This document shows, one piece after another, positions 1,934-32,401 of a stretch of 42,449 bases of DNA. The DNA comes from a virus. The stretch is taken from IMG/VR virus record IMGVR_UViG_3300045988_091463, positions 1 through 42,449 of that record; one strand, given 5' to 3'. Within the stretch, counting starts at the first letter, position 1. Every line of letters begins with the position of its first letter. The notes under the pieces were generated by a model, which had not been told where the DNA came from, searched no databases, and saw nothing but the letters and a program-made list of their open reading frames with translations. The translations under genes and the position numbers were made by a program.

Positions 1934-3160
1934 ATGAGCTTTTTTCAGTCGTTAGGAGATTCCAAACTCTCTTATGACGATTATGTCGCTTCGGTAGTGT
2001 CTGGCAATGATAGCGCAAAGTATGTTGGTATTTCAGCTCTTAGAAACAGCGATGTGCTGACAGCGACTTCAATTATTGCTGGTGATATTGCTAGGTTCCC
2101 TTTGATTAAGAAAAATGTTAACGGTGACATCATTCAAGACGAGGACATCAATTATCTGTTGAATGTAAAATCGACTGGCAATGCTTCGGCTCGAACGTGG
2201 AAATTTGCAATGGCAGTCAATACTATTTTGACAGGTAATGCTTATTCTCGTATTTTGAGAGACCCACGGACTGGCAAAGCGTTGCAATTTCAGTTTTATA
2301 AACCATCTGAAACTCGTGTAGAAGAATTAGATAGCCATGAACTTATCTATACTTTCGTTGACAGTTTGACAGGCAAAGAGGTTGCTTGTGGAGCTGATGA
2401 TGTCATTCATTGGAAATTCTTTAGCCATGACACAATCTTAGGGCGTTCTCCGTTGCTGTCTTTGGGTGATGAAATTAGTTTGCAAAACAGCGGAACAAGT
2501 ACGCTTTTAAAATTCTTTAAAGACGGTTTTTCAAGCGGTATTTTAAAAATGGAAGGCGCTATGTTGAGTGGTGAAGCTCGCAAAAAGGCTCGTGAAGAAT
2601 TCGAGAAAATGCGAGAAGGAGCGAAAGGTGGCAGTCCACTAGTATTCGATAAGACAATGTCCTACGAGCCACTCGAAATTGATACTAATGTCTTGCAATT
2701 GATTACAAGTAACAATTTTTCAACAGCTCAAATCGCTAAAGCCTTGCGTATACCTAGTTATAAATTGGGCGTAAACAGCCCTAATCAGTCCGTAGCGCAA
2801 CTTACAGAAGATTACGTTACAAATGACTTGCCGTTCTATTTTGACGCGATAACGAGCGAATTAGGACTTAAAATCTTTAGTCCAAGAGATAGGCGGAAAT
2901 GCCGACTTGAGTTTGACACACGTAGTGTAACAGGTCGAAATGTTGATGAGATTGTTAAACTTGTCAATAATACATTGTTGACACCAAACCAAGGACTTAT
3001 CGAGCTTGGCAAACAGCCGTCTGATAATCCAGATATGGATAGGTATCAAACAAGCCTTAATTACGTTTTCTTGGACAAGAAAGAAGAATATCAATCATTG
3101 AAAGGAGGTGAGACTAATGCCGAAACGAATTCAGATGAGGGGCCCGCTGATTCCGAATAA
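1934..3160 (+). CDS. Portal protein (HK97-family type)
   Basis: 408 aa, directly after terL. AGGAGGTG RBS. Position and size are typical of a portal. Confidence 0.88.
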   Translation: MSFFQSLGDSKLSYDDYVASVVSGNDSAKYVGISALRNSDVLTATSIIAGDIARFPLIKKNVNGDIIQDEDINYLLNVKSTGNASARTWKFAMAVNTILTGNAYSRILRDPRTGKALQFQFYKPSETRVEELDSHELIYTFVDSLTGKEVACGADDVIHWKFFSHDTILGRSPLLSLGDEISLQNSGTSTLLKFFKDGFSSGILKMEGAMLSGEARKKAREEFEKMREGAKGGSPLVFDKTMSYEPLEIDTNVLQLITSNNFSTAQIAKALRIPSYKLGVNSPNQSVAQLTEDYVTNDLPFYFDAITSELGLKIFSPRDRRKCRLEFDTRSVTGRNVDEIVKLVNNTLLTPNQGLIELGKQPSDNPDMDRYQTSLNYVFLDKKEEYQSLKGGETNAETNSDEGPADSE

Positions 3161-3794
3161 TAGCCAAGAAGTTTACGACTATTATGGAATGGAAGCGATC
3201 AGCGCTAAATCGATTGCTGAAGCTCTTCCAGAAGATGGTTCAGACGTAGTAATTGAAGTCAATTCAAACGGAGGTTTGGTGACAGTAGGCAGTGATATTT
3301 ACACAACGCTGAAAAACTATTCTGGGCACGTCACAGTTGAAGTAACTGGAATGGCTGCAAGTGCTTGTAGCGTCGCAATTATGGGCGCTGACAAAGTCGT
3401 TATCAGTCCAACAGCTCAAATCATGATTCACAAAGCGCTATTGACTTCTGTAGCTGGTAATAGTGACGACCTTGAATCAGCAGCAAACGCTTTGAAAGCT
3501 AGCGATAAAGGCATTATTAATGCTTACAAGGCTAAAACTGGTTTAAGCGAAGATGAATTGCTTGAACTCATGAAAAATGAAACGTATATGAGTGCTGACG
3601 AAGCTGTTGAAAAAGGTTTTGCTGACGAAGTAATGACTTTTGACGAACAGCAGGCAGTTGCAAGTATTGGCAATGGACTGTTACCACAAGCGGTTATTGA
3701 CGACTATTTTGCAAATCATGGCAACAAGCGAAAACAGGAAATTGAAGCTATGAAACGTGAAATCGAAAAAGAAGAAATTTTACAAGGACTTTAA
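3117..3794 (+). CDS. Prohead maturation protease, ClpP-like (S14)
   Basis: The pattern INSNGG..GMAASA..IHKA fits Clp-protease-like prohead proteases. The ATG at 3117 follows AAAGGAGGTG; the track start at 3108 lacks an RBS. Confidence 0.85.
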   Translation: MPKRIQMRGPLIPNNSQEVYDYYGMEAISAKSIAEALPEDGSDVVIEVNSNGGLVTVGSDIYTTLKNYSGHVTVEVTGMAASACSVAIMGADKVVISPTAQIMIHKALLTSVAGNSDDLESAANALKASDKGIINAYKAKTGLSEDELLELMKNETYMSADEAVEKGFADEVMTFDEQQAVASIGNGLLPQAVIDDYFANHGNKRKQEIEAMKREIEKEEILQGL

Positions 3795-24984: not shown

Positions 24985-25009
24985 CACCCGATTTTTTCGG
25001 GTGTTTTTT
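24985..25009 (+). terminator. Second intrinsic terminator
   Basis: CACCCGA-TTTTT-TCGGGTG followed by TTTTTT. Confidence 0.8.
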
Positions 25010-25249
25010 AGTGCAATAAAAAAGCCTTGTCCATAAAAGCTTAAGGCGGGGAATAGGCGGGGACGAGTGCTAGAAAGCGCGTAGTAGAGCGTGAGAATAT
25101 TTTATGTTATAAAATTTATCGTTTTTCCATAACGGATTTAACCGCATTTTAACTACTGTTTTATAGCATTTTAAATTATAACTTTCAAAAAATAATCGGT
25201 ATTTTTAGGTATGATTAGGTATAGTGGCGGGGAATAAGACGGGGATTTT
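25010..25249. other. Probable attP region with repeated GGCGGGGAATA(G/A)G(C/A)CGGGGA boxes
   Basis: Non-coding DNA directly 3' of int. The boxes at 25045-25063 and 25226-25245 flank an AT-rich stretch. TTAGGTAT occurs twice at 25205-25223. Confidence 0.5.
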
Positions 25250-26410
25250 TTACCTAATTGCTCGCAAGAATGAATCAGTAACTTCACTTGCGACTTCGTC
25301 TTGAATGTGTGTGTATTTTTGAGTCATATAAGACGTTGAATGGCCTAACGCAGCTGCCATATGTTCAACTGGTACACCAGCGATTTGACCTTGTGTAGCG
25401 AAGAAGTGGCGCATCATGTGGGGTGAAACGTGAATACCGATTGCTTTACTGACCTTTTGAAAAACGACGCTAATGCGCGTGTACACGACTGGTTTTCCAA
25501 ATAGCCTTTTGCACTTTGAACCATCATCGATAAAAAGAAAGCTTTCCTTGTTTAGTATAATGCCAGCTTTTTTAGCGATGCGCTTGGTTTCCTCGATGGC
25601 TAAATCTAACAAAGCCGTGGTTTCCTGATCAACAAACACATATCGTTCAGATTGTTTAGTTTTCATTTTTCCGCCACTTGGACGTCCTTTTGTACGGCTT
25701 TCGTTCAAAAAGATACGATAGCGACCCTCTACTAGCTTCAATGAGCTAAATTTGATCCCCAAAACTTCGCTGACACGTAGTCCAAAATAAGTAAGTCTAA
25801 CCATCGTGTAATCATAAGTACTTAGCACCTTTTTTGCACATCTATCCCAATTTTGAAATTTTTCGACAGATAATCGTTTATCTCTCTGATTAATACTGCT
25901 GTCACCTACATAAATTTTTAGAATAGGGTTTTTATCGATGTAACCATTGACCTCCGCATCTGTAAGCATTGCTTCAAGAATGGCACTTGTTTGAACGACA
26001 GTTGTTCGTGAGTATTTTTTAAGCATTTTTGCTATAAAAACTTCATACTCTTGTCTATTAATGTCAACTAATCTAGTTTGACCATATCTTTTCTCAAAGT
26101 GTACTTTAAAGAGGTTGTTTTTGTTTCTAATCGTGTCTGGCGCCCATCGACCCGTTTTAATACGGTTCTCGCTGTATATTTCCCAATAATCGTTGACCGT
26201 CATGTTTTTCTTCGGGTCATACTCGTTATTTGCTATTTTGTTTTCGATTTCTGCAAGCGCGTGTCTAGCCTCGGCAAGTGTCTTTAAGTTGCTAGCAGTA
26301 GCTTCTTTCTTTTTGCCGTTTAATTTAAAGTTTCGGCGAACGTAGTAGCGTTTGCCTTTTTTAGTTTCATATGTATATATATTTGGATATTTTGTCTTAT
26401 TGTATTTCAT
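25250..26410 (-). CDS. int: Tyrosine integrase
   Basis: 386 aa. C-terminal HMMRHFFAT...LGHSTSYMTQKYTH contains the R-H-R-Y catalytic pattern. Confidence 0.93.
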   Translation of the reverse strand: MKYNKTKYPNIYTYETKKGKRYYVRRNFKLNGKKKEATASNLKTLAEARHALAEIENKIANNEYDPKKNMTVNDYWEIYSENRIKTGRWAPDTIRNKNNLFKVHFEKRYGQTRLVDINRQEYEVFIAKMLKKYSRTTVVQTSAILEAMLTDAEVNGYIDKNPILKIYVGDSSINQRDKRLSVEKFQNWDRCAKKVLSTYDYTMVRLTYFGLRVSEVLGIKFSSLKLVEGRYRIFLNESRTKGRPSGGKMKTKQSERYVFVDQETTALLDLAIEETKRIAKKAGIILNKESFLFIDDGSKCKRLFGKPVVYTRISVVFQKVSKAIGIHVSPHMMRHFFATQGQIAGVPVEHMAAALGHSTSYMTQKYTHIQDEVASEVTDSFLRAIR

Positions 26411-26428
26411 TTTTTTCTCCTTGTTAAA

Positions 26429-26456
26429 AATTTAGCTTCTGGACAAGGCTTTTCAA
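26429..26456 (-). promoter_or_regulatory. Putative int promoter whose spacer is the 18-nt repeat AGCTTCTGGACAAGGCTT
   Basis: The minus strand reads TTGAAA, 16-nt spacer, TAAATT. Confidence 0.4.
26434..26451. repeat. 18-nt motif AGCTTCTGGACAAGGCTT, copy B
   Basis: Identical to 30534-30551. An inverted, slightly diverged copy lies at 25022-25040. Confidence 0.9.
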
Positions 26457-26635
26457 CTTAGAGAAATTCTTGACATCACCACCTTTTTTGATAAAATTAA
26501 ATAAGCGGAAAGCAACGAACCTGGATTTTTCCATTTTCAATTTTTTAAGTAATCAATTAAGTTGTTTTTTCGTACTTATCATCTAACCCTTACACTCAAA
26601 ATTTGGCGATGGAGAGTGTGAGGGATTTTTTGTTT

Positions 26636-27262
26636 TTATTTCCAAAATTGTTTTCCGTATTGGACTTTTAATTCTTTTTCATCATATTTTTTATCTTTAT
26701 CGCCGCCATAGAAATTTACAAATGTTTTAGTTTCTCCGGCGGGAATAAGAACAGTTCCGTCAGTGTAGGTTTCGCCTGTAAAGAATGTTGAATCAAATTT
26801 TAAATAGTCATCACCAGATTTTAAAAAGAACTCTTTAGGGTTAACTGTGGCAGGGGTATTACTTGTATTTACTATATCAACACCTACCAAAAAAACGTCA
26901 TTTTTTGAAGTATCTATACCCGTTGCTATAAGATTACTATTGTTTTTCTTGGCGTACAATGCTGCAATATCAACGCCGACGCTATCGTTAGAATAATTGA
27001 TATATTCTTTAAAGTCACTTGAACTAGTATCTTGTGTTGTCGTGAAATCAATCAATGAATCATAAAAGTTTGTCCCTGCATTCATTTGCCTTACATAAGC
27101 AAATGCTTTGCTGCTTAAATTTCTATCTTTATCTATTGTTTTTTGTAATTTAGCGTTTTCATTTGAATACGCTATAACTTTAAAAATTAAAAATAAAATA
27201 GCAACAACAGACACTAGCTGCGTCCAAAAAAGTGGTTGTTTAAAAATAGTTTTCTTTTTCAT
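26636..27262 (-). CDS. Membrane-anchored DUF4352-like protein (candidate superinfection exclusion or surface protein)
   Basis: N-terminal TM segment LFWTQLVSVVAILFLIFKVIA. C-terminal VGVDIVNTSNTPATVNPKEFFLKSGDDY fits a DUF4352-type Ig-like domain. Lies in the lysogeny-expressed orientation. Confidence 0.7.
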   Translation of the reverse strand: MKKKTIFKQPLFWTQLVSVVAILFLIFKVIAYSNENAKLQKTIDKDRNLSSKAFAYVRQMNAGTNFYDSLIDFTTTQDTSSSDFKEYINYSNDSVGVDIAALYAKKNNSNLIATGIDTSKNDVFLVGVDIVNTSNTPATVNPKEFFLKSGDDYLKFDSTFFTGETYTDGTVLIPAGETKTFVNFYGGDKDKKYDEKELKVQYGKQFWK

Positions 27263-27291
27263 TTTCTTTCCCTTGTTCAATAAAAGTTTTT

Positions 27292-28080
27292 TTATTTTTC
27301 AGAATATCTTCCAACGACCTTGCCGATAATCCTAAAATCGCTATCGATATCAACTAGTATGTCATCATATTTAGAATTTAAACTGTGTAGATATGCTCCA
27401 GAATCATTAATAACTAGTTCTTTAATGTAAGCGTCGCCGTAATATTCGAATACTCCGATATCACCGTTTGAAAGTTCCACAGACAACTTTACAAATACGT
27501 AGTCACCAGAGTGATATTCTGGCTCCATTGAATCGCCGTAAATAGGAACAACAAAGTCTGCATCTACATCTATCGGCAATTCAATCTGTTCAACTTGTAC
27601 ATCATTTAAATATTGTCCTGTACCAGCCGATAACGCTTGGTCGTAGTAGTTATAGGTATAATATATAGTTTGAGGTTCGTTAATTGTATTCTGATTGTTT
27701 ACTTCTAATTCTTGTTCTTTTAGTTGCTTATCAGTATAAGCCAAAACTTTCTTTTGACGTGCTTTGTGTAATCTAGCAACTTTATTATTGATTTGAGAAA
27801 TTAAAGAGTCATCAATATCTTCCTGTTTTTCAGTTTTAAAACGAGGGTCAATGTCAGATTTTAAAAGACCAAAATAATCAGCGATTTTTTGGACATTCCC
27901 CGGACGAGGTAGAGCGTTTCCTCTAACATATTCGTTAAAACTACTTCGTGGAATATCTAATTTATCAGCAAGATGAGATTGTTTTAAATTATTTTCATCT
28001 AATAGCTGTCGTATTTTAGTAGAAACAAATTCCATTGCTTCTTTTTCTTGAGGAGTAGCTTTTCCTCTTCCTCTAGCCAT
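27292..28080 (-). CDS. CI-type repressor (XRE HTH plus S24 LexA-like peptidase domain)
   Basis: N-terminal HTH LKQSHLADKLDIPRSSFNEYVRG. C-terminal YGDSMEP with a downstream K, as in S24 autopeptidases. Confidence 0.9.
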   Translation of the reverse strand: MARGRGKATPQEKEAMEFVSTKIRQLLDENNLKQSHLADKLDIPRSSFNEYVRGNALPRPGNVQKIADYFGLLKSDIDPRFKTEKQEDIDDSLISQINNKVARLHKARQKKVLAYTDKQLKEQELEVNNQNTINEPQTIYYTYNYYDQALSAGTGQYLNDVQVEQIELPIDVDADFVVPIYGDSMEPEYHSGDYVFVKLSVELSNGDIGVFEYYGDAYIKELVINDSGAYLHSLNSKYDDILVDIDSDFRIIGKVVGRYSEK

Positions 28081-28112
28081 TCAGTTTTCCTCCTTTTGAT
28101 TTTTGTACTTAT

Positions 28113-28141
28113 ATAATACCGATTTTTTTCGGATTTGTAAA
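28113..28141 (-). promoter_or_regulatory. Repressor gene promoter
   Basis: The minus strand reads TTTACA, 17-nt spacer, TATTAT. Confidence 0.55.
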
Positions 28142-28181
28142 TAAAAAAACGAAAAAAATTCGTTTTTTTTCGTTTTAAGCA

Positions 28182-28210
28182 TTGACATTCGTTTTAAAAC
28201 GGATTATAAT
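28182..28210 (+). promoter_or_regulatory. Consensus rightward early promoter with a palindromic operator in the spacer
   Basis: TTGACA, 17-nt spacer, TATAAT. The palindrome CGTTTTAAAACG lies at 28190-28201. An AAAACGAA/TTCGTTTT inverted repeat lies at 28146-28166. Confidence 0.8.
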
Positions 28211-28258
28211 ATACTCGTAAGGTTGAGAGAGACCTTAACAAAAACAGGAGGTGAGGAT

Positions 28259-28390
28259 ATGAACGAACTAGAAAAAACAGCCCTCAACGAAATACTGAGG
28301 ACTGTGACCTATATTGCAGAGAAAATCGATGAAATTGATTCTAAGATTTCTTTGGACGATTCACGAGTTCTTGAGCATCAAGAAAATTAA
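28259..28390 (+). CDS. Small acidic ORF (43 aa), first gene downstream of the early promoter
   Basis: AGGAGGTGAGG RBS and an ATG at 28259. The 3' end overlaps the convergent gene by 50 nt. Confidence 0.45.
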   Translation: MNELEKTALNEILRTVTYIAEKIDEIDSKISLDDSRVLEHQEN

Positions 28391-29030
28391 GTTGCATTTC
28401 AATGTAGTGTAGGAATCCATGAAGATATCTTTTTAAATCTTGTAAGTCTTTATCGCTATGTTTTCTAACATAATGCGTTTCATCGTTTCCGATGAATGTT
28501 GAAGCAGTTGCGAAAGTTTGAAGAGTATCATCTTTTATGTATTTATCAATAACCTGTTTAAGTAGCATTTTTTCAACTTTTGATTTGTCTTTAGGATTTG
28601 TTGCAATGACAAAATCTTTTACAAAAAATTCTAACGCTTTTCGAAAGCCGATTCCTGCAATGTGGTCAAGTTTTTCTTGTTCTGCTTTTAGAGATTGCAA
28701 GTAGATTTCTTTGCCGATAGGCGATATAGCTGCAAGATTATCACTGATAGGAATATCGCTAGGAAGCTCAGGCTTAACATCTTGTAACGTTATATTTTCA
28801 ATGGATTCACGCCCAAAAACGCTCATGGTTTCCACGTTGAATTCGTCAATAAAATAATGCTTACATTGCGAACAAAAACGCATTAAAGCAAGGTGATAGT
28901 GATTGTTGTCAGTTTTCTTAGTTGTGTTATGTATCACAATCGGACTGGTAATGTTGTTGCAAATTTTACAAGTATCTTTAACTTCAACTGATTGCTTAAA
29001 ATACTCGGTTGGTTGTACTTCTACATACAT
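28341..29030 (-). CDS. Zn-ribbon plus DUF4145 (HEPN-like?) protein, cargo/defence candidate inside the switch region
   Basis: CKIC..(30)..CSQCKH forms a four-Cys ribbon. C-terminal GIGFRKALEFFVKDF...FIGNDETHY fits the DUF4145 pattern. GGAGA RBS. Confidence 0.75.
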   Translation of the reverse strand: MYVEVQPTEYFKQSVEVKDTCKICNNITSPIVIHNTTKKTDNNHYHLALMRFCSQCKHYFIDEFNVETMSVFGRESIENITLQDVKPELPSDIPISDNLAAISPIGKEIYLQSLKAEQEKLDHIAGIGFRKALEFFVKDFVIATNPKDKSKVEKMLLKQVIDKYIKDDTLQTFATASTFIGNDETHYVRKHSDKDLQDLKRYLHGFLHYIEMQLNFLDAQELVNRPKKS

Positions 29031-29058
29031 AATTTATTCTCCAATCATTTTTATTTCC

Positions 29059-29087
29059 ATTATACCATTTTAGAAAGGGGTGAGAAT
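29059..29087 (-). promoter_or_regulatory. Extended -10 promoter for the DUF4145 gene
   Basis: The minus strand reads ATTCTC, 17-nt spacer, TGgTATAAT. Confidence 0.5.
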
Positions 29088-29327
29088 ATGCAAAAAATGA
29101 CGTTACGTGCTTTACGCACAAACTATAGTTTAACAGCTAAAGAAGTAGCTGAGGAATTAGGTATTCATCAACAAACACTTCTTAAATACGAAAATGATAG
29201 TACAGATATTCCTTTGAGTTTATTAGAAAAACTAGCTAATTATTATGGCGTTAATAAAGATTTTATTTTTTTAGGCAAAAAATTCGTTTTAAAACAGAAT
29301 TTTAACAAACATTTATCAGCAGGTTAG
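29088..29327 (+). CDS. Cro-like XRE-family HTH protein (79 aa)
   Basis: The ATG follows AAGGGGTGAG. The HTH is LTAKEVAEELGIHQQTLLKYEND. Confidence 0.8.
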   Translation: MQKMTLRALRTNYSLTAKEVAEELGIHQQTLLKYENDSTDIPLSLLEKLANYYGVNKDFIFLGKKFVLKQNFNKHLSAG

Positions 29328-29339
29328 AAAGGAGCAAAC

Positions 29340-29486
29340 ATGAAACCAAAGCGTTATCCGTATAGTGGAAATAAAAAGCAACCTCATGAAGAGATTGCTA
29401 AGTTAAAAATTGGTTCTAACATGGTTAAAATCACTGCGAAAAAGATTACTTTTTCTGGGGCACTAGAGTCCCATCAGATTTTTTAA
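29340..29486 (+). CDS. Small basic ORF (48 aa)
   Basis: AAGGAG RBS 6 nt upstream. The 3' end overlaps the convergent gene at 29446-29679. Confidence 0.35.
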   Translation: MKPKRYPYSGNKKQPHEEIAKLKIGSNMVKITAKKITFSGALESHQIF

Positions 29487-29679
29487 TCAAGAGCCATTCT
29501 GGATTAATCTCAATACTTGCAGTTCCGCTATCTAGCTCTGCAACAAACCAAAATCCGTTTGGATAAGTTGTTTTAGTTTTGGAGTATCCAGGACGAAAAT
29601 CGATAATTTCCTTTTTGATTTCATTAAAATCTACCTCAAAGTTAGAGGTGTCGATATTAACATGAACTTGTTCAGACAC
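29446..29679 (-). CDS. Unknown 77-aa protein, minus-strand cargo gene
   Basis: GTG start preceded by GAAAGGAGG. Has its own promoter (below). Confidence 0.7.
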   Translation of the reverse strand: MSEQVHVNIDTSNFEVDFNEIKKEIIDFRPGYSKTKTTYPNGFWFVAELDSGTASIEINPEWLLIKKSDGTLVPQKK

Positions 29680-29765
29680 GCCGTTGCCTCCTTTCTGTAA
29701 AACTTAACTCTCAGGAAATCGCTTGGTTTGGTAGTTAAAGTTTTTTACCTGATTGTCATATCTAT

Positions 29766-29794
29766 ATTATAGCAGAAAGTAGAATTAATCACAA
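29766..29794 (-). promoter_or_regulatory. Promoter for the 77-aa minus-strand gene
   Basis: The minus strand reads TTGTGA, 17-nt spacer, TATAAT. Confidence 0.55.
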
Positions 29795-29848
29795 GATGTA
29801 GTGAGTAAAATTAAAAACAGATACAACATATTGTGGTTTGGTGAAGAT

Positions 29849-30037
29849 ATGTGGAAAAAATTAAATCATATTTTGATTGAAAAAGGAATGACAAAAAAAG
29901 AACTTGCGGAAAAAGCAGGAATTAGTAAAAACACAATCCAAAACATTCGGAATAGTAAAATCTCATTTCGAAATATGGTCAAAATCGCTGATGCTTTAGA
30001 CGTTAGCTTAGATGAATTTAGAAAGGATAACACATGA
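29849..30037 (+). CDS. Second XRE-family HTH protein (62 aa)
   Basis: The HTH is MTKKELAEKAGISKNTIQNIRNS. The GTG start at 29801 in the track is less likely. Confidence 0.75.
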   Translation: MWKKLNHILIEKGMTKKELAEKAGISKNTIQNIRNSKISFRNMVKIADALDVSLDEFRKDNT

Positions 30038-30184
30038 AACTTAACGTAGAAATTACAAATCTAGCTGAGTTTATAACAGCAACAGAAGTAGTGCTAAAAA
30101 AAAGCCGAAGAATTACAAAAAGCAATTCAACGACTTAATGCAATTGAGCTTGAAATTTCAACGTCATATGATAAAGAAATTTAG
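30034..30184 (+). pseudogene. Small coiled-coil ORF split by a frame change at an A8 tract (30096-30103)
   Basis: The zero frame stops at 30138 after 34 aa. The +1 frame continues as AEELQKAIQRLNAIELEISTSYDKEI to 30184. Confidence 0.4.
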
Positions 30185-30280
30185 AAAGGACGGTGTATCT
30201 ATTTTGGATACAAAAAAAGCCACTGAAAAATCAGTGACTTTCACAAAAACTTACTTACATTATACCAGAAAGGAAACAAC

Positions 30281-30532
30281 ATGGATAGTGTAATGCAACA
30301 ATTCTCTGATTGGCTAAAGGGCATAATCAAGGAAACATTAAACAAGCTTTTGGAAATCGAACGGGACGACGGTTTTCCAGAATTGATGGACGTAACAACG
30401 ACGTGTGACTTTTTGGGAATTAAATACGACACGTTTCAACTTTACCGCTATTCAGACGGTTTCCCAAAAGAATTGCCAGCCAAACGCTGGTCAAAACGAG
30501 CTATTAAGAAATGGCTTGAAAATCAAATTTAA
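30281..30532 (+). CDS. Excisionase-like / MerR-type HTH DNA-binding protein (83 aa)
   Basis: The segment LMDVTTTCDFLGIKYDTFQLY resembles Xis/HTH_17 small DNA binders. Confidence 0.55.
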   Translation: MDSVMQQFSDWLKGIIKETLNKLLEIERDDGFPELMDVTTTCDFLGIKYDTFQLYRYSDGFPKELPAKRWSKRAIKKWLENQI

Positions 30533-30533
30533 A

Positions 30534-30551
30534 AGCTTCTGGACAAGGCTT
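30534..30551. repeat. 18-nt motif AGCTTCTGGACAAGGCTT, copy C
   Basis: Identical to 26434-26451. Confidence 0.9.
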
Positions 30552-30567
30552 AGAAAGGAAGGGAAAC

Positions 30568-30825
30568 ATGGATGAGTATTTAGTTTTAGAACGTCCGTTG
30601 TATGACGGTCATCAAAAGATTTACTTATTCGAAAATGGCTACGGTGCAAGCGTAATAAACCATTCATTTTCGTACGGGCTTGAAATGGCTGTAATCAAAG
30701 GGAATGTTGATAATTGGGACATTTGCTGCAGAAAATTAATTTTCGATGACGATGATGACGGTATTTTAGGTTATCTAACTGAAAAAGAAGTTGAAAAATA
30801 TCTAAAAAGAATCAAGGAGTTGTAA
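30568..30825 (+). CDS. Hypothetical early protein (85 aa)
   Basis: AAGGAAGGG RBS, tight packing. Confidence 0.65.
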   Translation: MDEYLVLERPLYDGHQKIYLFENGYGASVINHSFSYGLEMAVIKGNVDNWDICCRKLIFDDDDDGILGYLTEKEVEKYLKRIKEL

Positions 30826-30827
30826 AC

Positions 30828-31010
30828 ATGGATTTATTTATTATCTGCTTTAGCTTAGCAGCACTGCTATACGTGCTAACATTGCCATTTATCGGCAAGA
30901 GAGCGAGAAAGAAAGAAGAACCAAAGCGGGGGTATTCAAAACGTTTCCCGTGGGAAGAAAATCAAATAGCATACAATCGCATGCACAGTTTACCAGATGA
31001 CGCGATTTAA
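30828..31010 (+). CDS. Small membrane protein (60 aa)
   Basis: N-terminal TM segment LFIICFSLAALLYVLTLPFI. AAGGAG RBS. Confidence 0.6.
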   Translation: MDLFIICFSLAALLYVLTLPFIGKRARKKEEPKRGYSKRFPWEENQIAYNRMHSLPDDAI

Positions 31011-31020
31011 GAGGTGCTAA

Positions 31021-31119
31021 ATGGAAAATGAATATTTTGACACAGATGAAATCATGGTAATCGGCTTTGACACAGATGGCTGGCACGGGTGCTGGGGCGA
31101 AAGAGAGGAAGAAGATTAA
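31021..31119 (+). CDS. Small acidic ORF (32 aa)
   Basis: GAGGTG RBS. Fills the gap between its neighbours exactly. Confidence 0.4.
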   Translation: MENEYFDTDEIMVIGFDTDGWHGCWGEREEED

Positions 31120-31121
31120 TA

Positions 31122-31256
31122 ATGTACACATACGAATACCGCTGCTTGGATTGTGGTGAGCGTTGGGAAATTATTGATAGTTACCCGCCGCTTGAATGTC
31201 CACATTGTGAAAGTGAACAGATTTATCAATTATGGAAAGTGAGGGCGTACGATTGA
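31122..31256 (+). CDS. Zinc-ribbon protein (44 aa)
   Basis: The arrangement CLDCG..(15)..CPHC forms two CxxC pairs. Confidence 0.55.
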   Translation: MYTYEYRCLDCGERWEIIDSYPPLECPHCESEQIYQLWKVRAYD

Positions 31257-31540
31257 GAATTTATGTTAATAAACGCAAAAAATTGATTTTAGCACCAGAA
31301 GTTTTTGAAAAATACGGTGGTGTCAGTAACGAAACTATGCAAATTAAAAATGGTGAATTTGCAAAGGAAATCGAAAAAGAGGTCAACGAAGCTATGCAAG
31401 AGATTATCGAACGTTGGCAACCAATTTTCGATAATATTCCAACGGAAGCACTATTTGCTGAAAGACAAAGGCAAGTTAAAAACTTTAGTGATTTTGAAAC
31501 AGTGCTAACAGAACTGGTAGAGGAGGAATATAGTAAATGA
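31232..31540 (+). CDS. Hypothetical early protein (about 95-102 aa)
   Basis: ORF track entry. An alternative TTG start at 31253 follows GTGAGGG. Confidence 0.6.
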   Translation: MESEGVRLRIYVNKRKKLILAPEVFEKYGGVSNETMQIKNGEFAKEIEKEVNEAMQEIIERWQPIFDNIPTEALFAERQRQVKNFSDFETVLTELVEEEYSK

Positions 31541-31740
31541 TTTTCGTAAAACAGTATTTTGACGGTATTAGCTATAATGCTACAGATTGGTTAAACCATG
31601 AAATTGAATTGAATAAGCATTGTTGGAGCCATAAAATCGTTGGTTATCAACTTGGTCTAGAAGATGTCGCTACTATTCTTGTTGAATGGGTTGGTTTGAT
31701 CGGAAATGAGTTTGAGGAGTGGGAACGTGAAGATTACTAA
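31537..31740 (+). CDS. Hypothetical early protein (67 aa)
   Basis: ATGA overlap with the upstream gene. Confidence 0.6.
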   Translation: MIFVKQYFDGISYNATDWLNHEIELNKHCWSHKIVGYQLGLEDVATILVEWVGLIGNEFEEWEREDY

Positions 31741-32401
31741 CGCAAGCAATATCGAACTTACCAGAAACTGGCGTATCCTCATTTATGGGAAACCTGGCCT
31801 TGGTAAGACAACATTAATTAAACAATTAAAAGGTAAAACGATAGTATTATCACTTGATAACTCGCAACGTGTTTTGGCGGGTAGTGAAAATATTGACGTC
31901 GTAGAATTTGATAGAAAACATCCGACGGAGTGCATGACTAACTTCTTGAAAGAAGTCGATGAAATTCTTTCAGAATATGACAATTTAGTCATTGATAATA
32001 TTTCAAGCTTTCAATCGGATTGGTTTATTGAACAAGGACGAAAATCAAAAAATGGTATCAGCAACGAATTGCAACATTATTCGCAATGGACGAACTATTT
32101 CTTACGAGTGCTAACAGCGATTTACAGTAAACCAATCAACATTTACGTGACAGCTTGGGAAGATACACACGATTTAAATTTGGAAACAGGGCAAATTATC
32201 ACGCAGTATGTTCCGCAAATCAGAAATAGTGTTTTAAGTCAGTTATTAGGGCTTACAGACGTCGTCGGACGAATCATTGTCAATGAGAAAACGGGCGGTC
32301 GTGGGGTTGTTTTAGAAGGTTCAGAAGGCACTTATGCTAAGAACCGTTTAGATAAACGCACGGTCTGCTCTATCGAGGAAGTGTTTGAGTTTGAAGCTTA
32401 G
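31727..32401 (+). CDS. Sak4-like / AAA_24-type ATPase (recombination-replication module)
   Basis: Walker A motif YGKPGLGKTT. The GTG at 31727 follows GAGGAG. Followed by helicase and DUF669 genes, as in Sak4 modules. Confidence 0.78.
   Translation: MKITNASNIELTRNWRILIYGKPGLGKTTLIKQLKGKTIVLSLDNSQRVLAGSENIDVVEFDRKHPTECMTNFLKEVDEILSEYDNLVIDNISSFQSDWFIEQGRKSKNGISNELQHYSQWTNYFLRVLTAIYSKPINIYVTAWEDTHDLNLETGQIITQYVPQIRNSVLSQLLGLTDVVGRIIVNEKTGGRGVVLEGSEGTYAKNRLDKRTVCSIEEVFEFEA

Follow-up and report, generated by a model that had tools for sequence, protein, structure and literature searches.

A temperate phage genome of 42,449 nucleotides (IMG/VR record IMGVR_UViG_3300045988_091463, positions 1 to 42,449, in the following referred to as the window) carries, between the genes for its cI-type repressor and its cro-like protein, a minus-strand gene for a protein of 229 amino acids (aa) that faces the early operon. 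We interpret this gene (28341-29030) as an antisense moron encoding a protein built like RAZR, a ring-activated zinc-finger RNase, which most likely serves in defense in the lysogen and is silenced by the early lytic promoter (PR) on induction. We put the probability of this overall reading at about 50%. A first-pass annotation, made from the letters of the sequence, had proposed a lysogeny-expressed defense or immunity gene of this kind, shut off by convergent early transcription, and had considered the coupling to be a noteworthy regulatory architecture.

A Self-Contained Unit Opposed to the Early Operon

The 229-aa gene is oriented opposite to the early operon and shares its direction with the integrase (int) and cI genes. 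Only four open reading frames (ORFs) of at least 120 aa on the minus strand are not nested within a longer plus-strand ORF, namely int, a 214-aa gene, cI and the 229-aa gene. The position of the gene and its 50-nucleotide (nt) overlap with a convergent ORF of 43 aa agree with the first-pass annotation, as does the presence of a promoter of its own. This promoter (29059-29086, minus strand) has the form TTCTCA-16-TGgTATAAT with an extended -10 element, and 2 nt separate its -35 box from the start codon of the cro-like gene. At the other end of the gene we identified a feature that the first-pass annotation had overlooked, an intrinsic terminator on the minus strand (28267-28305; z = -3.4), in which a stem of 11-12 bp (28305-28277) is followed by UUUUUUCU. 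The terminator is located within codons 3-16 of the 43-aa ORF and its hairpin lacks a U-tract in the plus direction. The hairpin is kept in the relatives inspected, where changes from G.U to A.U preserve the pairing. With its own conserved extended -10 promoter and terminator, the 229-aa gene is a separate unit opposed to the early operon, as had been suggested.

The boundaries of this unit are visible in a comparison of the phage Spn1 with phages that lack the gene. Homology is lost 10-36 nt within the 3' end of the gene and returns about 15 nt short of the early gene that follows, and a gene of the 229-aa type is missing altogether from phiARI0031 and MissC. Because the gene has its own promoter and hairpin, because the homology boundaries in Spn1 coincide with it and because it is present in some phages and absent from others, we consider it to be a moron of about 0.7 kb, consisting of a promoter and a gene, with the terminator placed inside the neighboring gene. 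It thus comprises promoter, gene and terminator as one autonomous unit, which some phages have and otherwise homologous ones lack.

The layout is strongly conserved. In a survey of 80 IMG/VR loci, a convergent small ORF was found in 76, with an overlap of 38-74 nt that was 50 nt in 60 of them, and a strict form of the cassette's promoter motif, TGNTATAAT, was present in 62 of the 80 relatives. Likewise, the large gene runs into a convergent small ORF at its 3' end in seven annotated Streptococcus phages, with 38-50 nt in common. In the window and four of the seven loci compared, a gap of 53-57 bp separates the large gene from the early gene that follows, and in the remaining three loci this gap measures 93-208 bp. 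Everywhere it is occupied by the ribosome binding site (RBS) and the TG[GA]TATAAT promoter of the cassette. In Anaerostipes, Staphylococcus and Fusobacterium phages the homolog is a lone antisense gene in the early operon with a 3' overlap of 11-20 nt, and in Aeribacillus AP45 it is co-oriented with its neighbors.

The first-pass annotation had described the locus as a genetic switch that is split by the antisense gene. This splitting is not what is conserved. Adjacency to cI could be judged in the 59 loci in which a cI-like gene was found, and the pair adjoins cI in only 11 of these, 9 of which have a perfect PR (12/12). In most relatives the cassette is located 0.4 to more than 1 kb from cI. 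The cI-adjacent layout is therefore a trait of the window phage and of Spn1-like pneumophages, and not of the family. Javan220 and Javan213 were dropped as comparators with and without the gene, since they have different, shorter repressors.

A Zinc Ribbon Joined to a DUF4145/HEPN-Like Domain

The 229-aa protein (phrog_1305) consists of a Cys4 RPB9-type zinc-ribbon/beta domain (residues 1-88) and a DUF4145/HEPN-like helical domain (residues 97-225). It belongs to a large family with 1,696 clusters at 90% identity and 2,436 clusters at 50% identity, to which at least 589 IMG/VR contigs contribute a relative. Nearly all members are 215-240 aa long and are matched from end to end. In a diverse alignment of 47 members with a mean column identity of 37%, the residues C21, C24, C56, G126, R130, K131, E134, I161, N182, H186 and K200 show no variation, and C53 is shared by at least 90% of the members. 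The four-cysteine ribbon recognized in the first-pass annotation (C21, C24, C53 and C56) is thus invariant or nearly so across the family. In an AlphaFold2 model (pLDDT 92) the ribbon is extended to a six-stranded sheet, and a search of the family profile against sequences in the PDB identified the C-terminal zinc ribbon of RPB9 (E ~1e-3) and, weakly, 1QYP, which is the template used by the authors of the RAZR study (PMC13017515).

The assignment of the C-terminal domain comes from the family as a whole. DUF4145 (PF13643) was detected at E<=0.01 in 27 of the 47 diverse members (best 4e-8) and in 8 of 22 close members, and several homologs have been named "DUF4145 domain-containing protein" by NCBI. 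The DUF4145-type C-terminus proposed in the first-pass annotation accordingly stands at the level of the family, and the match of the window protein alone falls below the Pfam threshold. The same annotation had grouped DUF4145 with HEPN-like domains, and this is correct: DUF4145 belongs to the HEPN superfamily and has also been recorded in fusions to zinc ribbons (PMC3710099). A Foldseek comparison of the modeled C-terminal bundle with the PDB gave weak matches to the HEPN homologs 1wol (ST0689; E 0.19, probability 0.95, TMt 0.58) and 1ufb (TMt 0.55). Two Foldseek matches to viral proteins were significant, both of them unnamed, and the best of these (236 aa) resembles another member of the family.

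The closest CHARACTERISED protein is RAZR (PD-T7-4) from E. coli UMB1727 (RRL46918.1), a "Zn finger-HEPN" protein of about 219 aa (PMC9519451, Table S2). In RAZR, an RPB9-like Cys4 ribbon acts as the infection sensor and a DUF4145/HEPN RNase with the catalytic residues R146 and H154 as the effector, and abortive infection follows after the protein has assembled around rings formed by the phage portal or Gp77 (PMC13017515). RAZR homologs differ chiefly in the zinc-finger domain, according to a review (PMC13434031). BxaP is another DUF4145 defense protein (PMC10799925), and DS-38 is a further defense protein with a DUF4145 or Zn-finger/HEPN architecture (bioRxiv 10.1101/2025.01.08.631726).

The architecture, the size and the pattern of variability of the 229-aa family match those of RAZR. 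Both are single proteins of near-equal size (~219 versus 229 aa) in which an N-terminal RPB9-type Cys4 ribbon is followed by a C-terminal DUF4145/HEPN-like helical domain, and the GN...H portion of the motif is common to both (here G181, N182 and H186). Furthermore, in both the variability is concentrated in the zinc-finger "sensor" domain: the mean pairwise identity in the 229-aa family is 20-32% for the N-terminal domain versus 44-60% for the C-terminal domain. The differences are that the arginine equivalent to R146 is missing in the 229-aa family, that its N-terminal domain is larger, with a predicted six-stranded sheet, and that its genes are carried by Gram-positive prophages as an antisense cassette.

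The active site also departs from the HEPN standard. The motif Rx4-6H is not present in its canonical form, since H186 and N182 are invariant but no arginine is found 4-8 residues upstream of the histidine. The GNDETHY motif is retained in the family and is followed by a basic residue at position 189, which is R189 in the window protein and R or K in 45 of the 47 members. The active site of the family may thus be rearranged, or the protein may be non-catalytic.

The Repressor, the Early Promoter and Its Operators

The control region to the left of the cassette corresponds closely to the first-pass annotation. The cI-type repressor (262 aa; 27292-28080, minus strand) has an HTH_3 domain and a Peptidase_S24 autocleavage domain (E 4e-24), and its predicted promoter (28113-28141, minus strand; TTTACA-17-TATTAT, 10/12) diverges from PR. 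The promoter scan places PR at 28182-28210 on the plus strand, where TTGACA-17-TATAAT matches the consensus in 12 of 12 positions and is the sole perfect match in the 4.2 kb scanned. The main operator ATTCGTTTTAAAACGGA (28187-28203) is located in the PR spacer and contains the palindromic core CGTTTTAAAACG (28190-28201) that had already been noticed.

Two auxiliary copies of the operator had escaped the first-pass annotation. The left one is an operator-like site inside the cI ORF (27830-27846; core AGTTTTAAAACG), a 14/17 copy at 358 bp from the PR operator. The distal one, ATTCGTTTTAAAACAGA (29282-29298), has 16/17 identity to the PR operator, is located 1095 bp away at the 3' end of the cro-like gene and has no promoter hexamers, so that it is an operator only. 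The operator 17-mer yields four matches where 0.33 are expected, and four or more were obtained in 0 of 100 shuffles; as the central palindrome matches on both strands, the four matches correspond to three sites. The lambda OL/OR system and the lactococcal TP901-1 OR/OL/OD system are three-operator switches in which the repressor acts by looping. The positions of the two auxiliary operators suggest cooperative looping of a similar kind, with one operator in the lytic promoter and two auxiliaries some hundred bp to about 1 kb away in flanking genes. The difference is that the putative right-hand loop of 1095 bp would here span the entire antisense gene and its promoter, so that a repressor bound at PR and at the distal operator would enclose the whole cassette.

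A perfect palindrome with arms of 13 nt (AAAACGAAAAAAA/TTTTTTTCGTTTT; 28146-28176) lies squarely between the -35 box of the cI promoter and that of PR. It is unlike the CGTTTTAAAACG operator and may represent a second type of operator, perhaps a site for the cro-like protein.

The First Gene of the Early Operon

PR leads into a gene for an acidic protein of 43 aa (28259-28390, plus strand; phrog_4488) that starts with MNELE[KR]TALNEILRTVTYIAEK..., has a strong RBS and a predicted isoelectric point (pI) of 4.4, in line with the acidic ORF described in the first-pass annotation. The gene shares its final 50 nt with the 3' end of the 229-aa gene. The ORF is present yet unannotated in phiSS12 and Javan197, and a tblastn search recovered the protein in 62 phage records with 54-90% identity, all from Streptococcus. 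In 12 copies of the gene, the third codon positions are variable at 23 of 31 codons and the second positions at 8 of 31, and residues 1-22 are almost invariant. Because it is conserved in 62 records with the variation concentrated at third codon positions, we conclude that the ORF is a real coding gene, and the idea that it is a mere leader can be set aside. The small protein is nearly constant even where the large protein falls to about 35% identity. No match for it was found in PADLOC or NCBIfam.

The Probable Route of Transcription to the cro-Like Gene

The cro-like HTH_3 protein (79 aa, E 5e-14) is encoded on the plus strand at 29088-29327, immediately beyond the cassette promoter, and no promoter of its own is recognizable. 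In a consensus scan, no plus-strand promoter with at least 9 of 12 matches was found between 28859 and 29402, and in the 80 loci the mean best score for an early-direction promoter near the 5' end of the cassette was 8.49, versus 8.08 in controls, which is background. The first-pass annotation, which had found no convincing separate promoter for the cro-like gene, was thus right for the window as well as for the relatives. Furthermore, no plus-strand terminator was found between PR and 29088. Given this lack of a terminator and the background scores downstream, read-through from PR in the antisense direction across the cassette is the best-supported and, as far as can be judged from the sequence, likeliest route to the cro-like gene.

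In the phage EJ-1 a separate cro promoter (TTGAAA-19-TAAAAT) has been annotated. We rejected this candidate, since its spacer is 19 nt and it overlaps the RBS and the start codon of an unannotated ORF. From the equivalent site in the window, transcription would begin inside the cro-like ORF.

A Model for Expression in the Two Phases of the Life Cycle

From this anatomy we infer the pattern of expression and the interference between the two transcripts, and from the likeness to RAZR a defense function and possibly an RNase activity. In the lysogen, cI would bind the operator in the PR spacer, probably aided by looping with the two auxiliary operators, and keep PR silent. The extended -10 promoter would then be unopposed and the 229-aa protein would be made, while the embedded terminator would keep its transcript out of PR and cI. 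The protein itself would most likely act in abortive infection or in defense against superinfection. On induction or infection the perfect PR would fire, and its transcript would have to traverse the cassette and its promoter in antisense before reaching the cro-like gene and the early operon. Collision, promoter occlusion and pairing of sense and antisense RNA would shut down the weaker cassette promoter, located about 850 bp away, and the 43-aa protein, as the first and probably most abundant product of PR, may neutralize 229-aa protein that has already been made.

The elements of this model have precedents. Transcriptional interference between convergent promoters is an established principle, as documented for pR and pL of coliphage 186 (PMC5001618). 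Like the lambdoid phage morons, the cassette is autonomous, with promoter, gene and terminator, and is found in some members of a group of related phages and not in others, and as in phage 186 a strong lytic promoter faces a weaker promoter of the lysogenic phase and the transcripts overlap. In phage 186, however, the convergent promoters are the switch itself, whereas here the weaker promoter drives accessory cargo. The distance of about 850 bp between the promoters and the location of the terminator inside the coding sequence of a neighbor also set the present locus apart.

The closest parallel is the Tha/Ith pair in the S. aureus phage 80alpha, described in 2024, in which a prophage HEPN defense is switched off at induction via a small overlapping antisense gene (PMC11087260). 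Ith inhibits Tha, antisense transcription contributes, and the arrangement serves to spare the induced prophage from autoimmunity; tha is transcribed with the cI operon, and ith is an antisense insert with a constitutive promoter (PMC11087260). With this precedent, the coupling that the first-pass annotation had considered noteworthy is not new in principle. In both systems a prophage HEPN-type gene and a small gene overlap on opposite strands, and the two promoters belong to opposite phases of the life cycle with mutually exclusive expression, the phases being deduced here from the operator in PR. The polarity is reversed, however: in the window the antisense insert with a promoter of its own is the HEPN-like gene, and the small gene belongs to the lytic operon repressed by cI. 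Tha also has a canonical RNSIMH motif and no zinc ribbon. Homology was not detected, as a tblastn search with the 229-aa protein against 50,697 phage records returned no S. aureus phage.

A more specific extension of the Tha/Ith comparison, which we regard as tentative and doubtful, is that the 43-aa protein (MNELERTALNEILRTVTYIAEK...) would be an Ith-like inhibitor or immune-evasion factor for a branch of zinc-ribbon/DUF4145 defense proteins that lack the arginine. The pair would then constitute a Tha/Ith switch of reversed polarity for avoiding autoimmunity, one that is widespread among the prophages of S. pneumoniae, S. pyogenes, S. suis and their relatives, and lone copies of the small gene could serve in anti-defense against resident prophages.

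Arguments Against the Model and Alternative Explanations

Several observations speak against the interpretation that we favor. At the level of the protein, the window protein taken singly scored 18.2 bits with DUF4145 (E 0.0027), versus a gathering threshold of 23.1 bits. It had no match in PADLOC at E<=0.1 and none in NCBIfam, and no PADLOC model, that for PD-T7-4 included, matched any of the 47 diverse members at E<=0.01. In Foldseek searches of the PDB with both structure models, no match reached E<=0.001, and neither of the RAZR entries (9Y9C and 9Y6U) was among the matches listed; searches of the PDB sequences with two family profiles identified zinc-finger and zinc-ribbon proteins and a designed binder, and not RAZR. 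Position 178, the equivalent of R146, is A, T, S, V or N in 47 of 47 members and never arginine, an equivalence that is inferred from the spacing of the motif and from positions 54-74 of the DUF4145 model rather than from a direct alignment to RAZR. As the canonical HEPN arginine is missing throughout the family and no PADLOC model matches, nuclease activity is uncertain. Likewise, membership of the RAZR family is not established, because the PD-T7-4 model is unmatched and the R146 equivalent is never arginine; the likeness to RAZR is one of architecture, size and pattern of variability. PHROGs, finally, labels phrog_1305 as "DNA binding protein."

At the level of the locus, the 43-aa ORF is present without a convergent gene in phiARI0031 and MissC, it faces an unrelated 240-aa gene in the satellite Javan289, and the large gene's homologs in phages of Anaerostipes, Staphylococcus and Fusobacterium converge on small genes that are unrelated. 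The 43-aa ORF as a dedicated partner of the cassette was therefore rejected as a strict rule, since it occurs alone in the two phages and with another partner in the satellite. Its lone occurrence fits a role in immune evasion and fits an unrelated early function equally well. Consensus scans are moreover blind to weak, non-consensus or activator-dependent promoters, and two studies of pneumococcal prophage transcriptomes contained nothing specific on a gene of the 229-aa type.

Four alternative explanations can be set against this model. We consider it unlikely that the cassette is an ordinary moron without regulatory coupling, so that transcription through it has no meaningful effect on the cassette or the cro-like and downstream early genes have an unrecognized promoter. 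The depositors of EJ-1 predicted such a promoter for cro in the homologous intergenic region, promoters of the weak or activator-dependent kind would be invisible to our scans, and the several antisense genes scattered across these early regions may indicate that the arrangement is just tolerated. Yet the EJ-1 prediction is a poor one, with its long spacer and its overlap with an RBS and a start codon, and the gap that would have to hold such a promoter is narrow and already taken by the promoter and the RBS of the cassette. Background promoter scores in 80 loci also speak for read-through, as does the stretch from PR to 29088, which has no plus-strand terminator, and a 12/12 promoter facing a weak convergent one at about 850 bp is a classic setting for interference (PMC5001618). 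The possibility that the 229-aa protein is a nucleic-acid-binding regulator of the lysis-lysogeny decision, such as an auxiliary repressor or an RNA-binding factor, rather than a defense effector, and is encoded within the switch as one of its own parts, is in our view distinctly unlikely. It would account for the DNA-binding label of phrog_1305, which RefSeq also gives to SM1 gp14, EJ-1 ORF9 and phiRS7 Orf55, for the missing catalytic arginine and for the position next to cI in the window phage, and RPB9/TFIIS-type zinc ribbons do contact nucleic acids. However, the cassette is dispensable, being missing from close relatives with the same flanks, and is located well away from cI in most of the phages that have it. 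Its zinc ribbon evolves fastest, which is unusual for a DNA-binding domain that recognizes a fixed operator, and the label has no traceable experiment behind it and appears to be automated.

Quite improbable is a catalytically dead HEPN-like domain that acts in a non-enzymatic manner, for example as a decoy or by sequestering ring-shaped or structural proteins of incoming phages. The arginine equivalent to R146 is found in 0 of 47 diverse members, the R146A mutation abolishes defense by RAZR (PMC13017515), and HEPN families that keep the histidine without the arginine were listed in a survey in 2013 (PMC3710099). The invariance of N182, H186, R130, K131, E134 and K200 at a mean column identity of 37% nevertheless argues for a conserved active or binding site, in which R189 or R130 could replace the missing arginine. 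Least convincing, and very improbable, is an addiction pair in which a HEPN-like toxin stabilizes the prophage, with the 43-aa protein or the antisense RNA as the antidote and defense not the main role. HEPN domains are common as toxins of toxin-antitoxin systems (PMC3710099), the convergent 3' overlap of 38-74 nt resembles that of type I pairs, the small protein is acidic, and the two genes occur together in 76 of 80 loci. With its gene placed behind a repressed lytic promoter, however, the antidote of the window phage would be missing from the lysogen just when the toxin is made, the opposite of what addiction requires. The 43-aa ORF also occurs alone and with an unrelated partner, and RAZR, which has the same architecture, was reported to be non-toxic when overexpressed alone in E. 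coli (PMC13434031). On balance we favor the hypothesis of a defense moron that is silenced by PR.

Genomic Context and Additional Observations

The window represents the complete, circularly permuted genome of a temperate Streptococcus phage of the S. macedonicus/equinus group. The closest named protein is from Streptococcus macedonicus, and the closest phage DNA is found in prophages of S. equinus and S. gallolyticus. The gene order is terminase, probable portal, capsid, tail and lysis, followed by int, the 214-aa gene, cI and the 229-aa gene, all on the minus strand, and the early and replication genes. The portal gene is probably the one at 1934-3160, a guess from its position. The 214-aa gene (26636-27280, minus strand), placed between int and cI, encodes a protein with an N-terminal hydrophobic segment and a weak, sub-threshold match to DUF4352 (E 6.5e-4), and without a match in PADLOC, PHROGs or NCBIfam; on these features it is a candidate for a membrane or lipoprotein factor in superinfection exclusion. 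An Rfam scan of 25000-32000 gave one sub-threshold match, to AgrB (E 0.41), which we dismissed.

A second antisense unit of the same design is located downstream of the cro-like gene. It consists of a 77-aa ORF (29446-29679, minus strand) with a promoter (29794-29766; TTGTGA-17-TATAAT with an upstream TG) and a terminator-like hairpin (29399-29377) inside a convergent 48-aa ORF (29340-29486, plus strand), which it overlaps by 41 nt. The 77-aa protein has no significant match in Pfam and none in PHROGs, PADLOC or NCBIfam. Beyond this unit, a further small helix-turn-helix protein (HTH_26/HTH_3, E ~1e-13) is encoded at 29801-30037 on the plus strand, so that two cro-like candidates are present, at 29088-29327 and 29801-30037. 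The first of these is flanked by an 18-nt inverted repeat with 94% complementarity (TTTTTATTTCCATTATAC/GTATAGTGGAAATAAAAA; 29048-29065 and 29360-29377), the left arm of which coincides with the -10 box and 5' untranslated region of the 229-aa promoter and the right arm of which abuts the second terminator hairpin. The repeat could be a module-boundary or recombination sequence.

Other phages showed related arrangements. In SM1 (AY007505, 3001-6000), the three opposed early genes gp7, gp11 and gp14 each overlap a small convergent ORF at their 3' end. We rejected the idea that they are paralogs, as a tblastn search gave one match in SM1, to gp14 only. Slots for antisense cargo nevertheless seem to be a general trait of such early operons. 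In EJ-1 (AJ609634, 3001-3774), the homolog ORF9 is annotated with 257 aa and has an aberrant hydrophobic C-terminus, and the family match covers only query residues 1-205. The large ORF is extended there and overlaps the MNEL frame over a longer stretch. This looks like a frameshift that has also disturbed the usual overlap with the small ORF. In Javan289 (MK448403, 2501-3452), the MNELERTALNEILRTVTYIAEK... ORF is fused to a longer C-terminus to give 78 aa, and the 240-aa gene opposite to it contains an HELLH motif, which may indicate a metallopeptidase. A conserved early ORF, MEDKIIELADYFISENTTYREAKIACEKLLKQV..., which is unannotated or short, was observed in phiARI0031 (2981-3148) and MissC (3001-3183) and recurs in several pneumophages; it also fills the "intergenic" gap before cro in EJ-1.

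Possible Implications for Prophage Defense in Streptococci

A zinc-ribbon/DUF4145 protein of the RAZR type, antisense control of the Tha/Ith type and morons are all already known in kind, and the architecture is no longer surprising in principle. What distinguishes the present system is the motif without the arginine, the reversed polarity, the terminator inside a conserved neighboring gene and the distal operator beyond the cassette. The family is large, uncharacterized, missing from PADLOC and NCBIfam and present in major pathogens. If our interpretation is correct, its 2,436 clusters at 50% identity and at least 589 viral contigs would represent a divergent RAZR-type branch with an altered active site. 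The "noncontiguous operon" as an answer to prophage autoimmunity, of which Tha/Ith in S. aureus phages is the case documented so far, would then recur with reversed polarity in the prophages of streptococcal pathogens. The cassette would also be a candidate determinant of phage resistance or superinfection immunity in pneumococci, S. suis and S. pyogenes, with a candidate small anti-defense protein encoded beside it.

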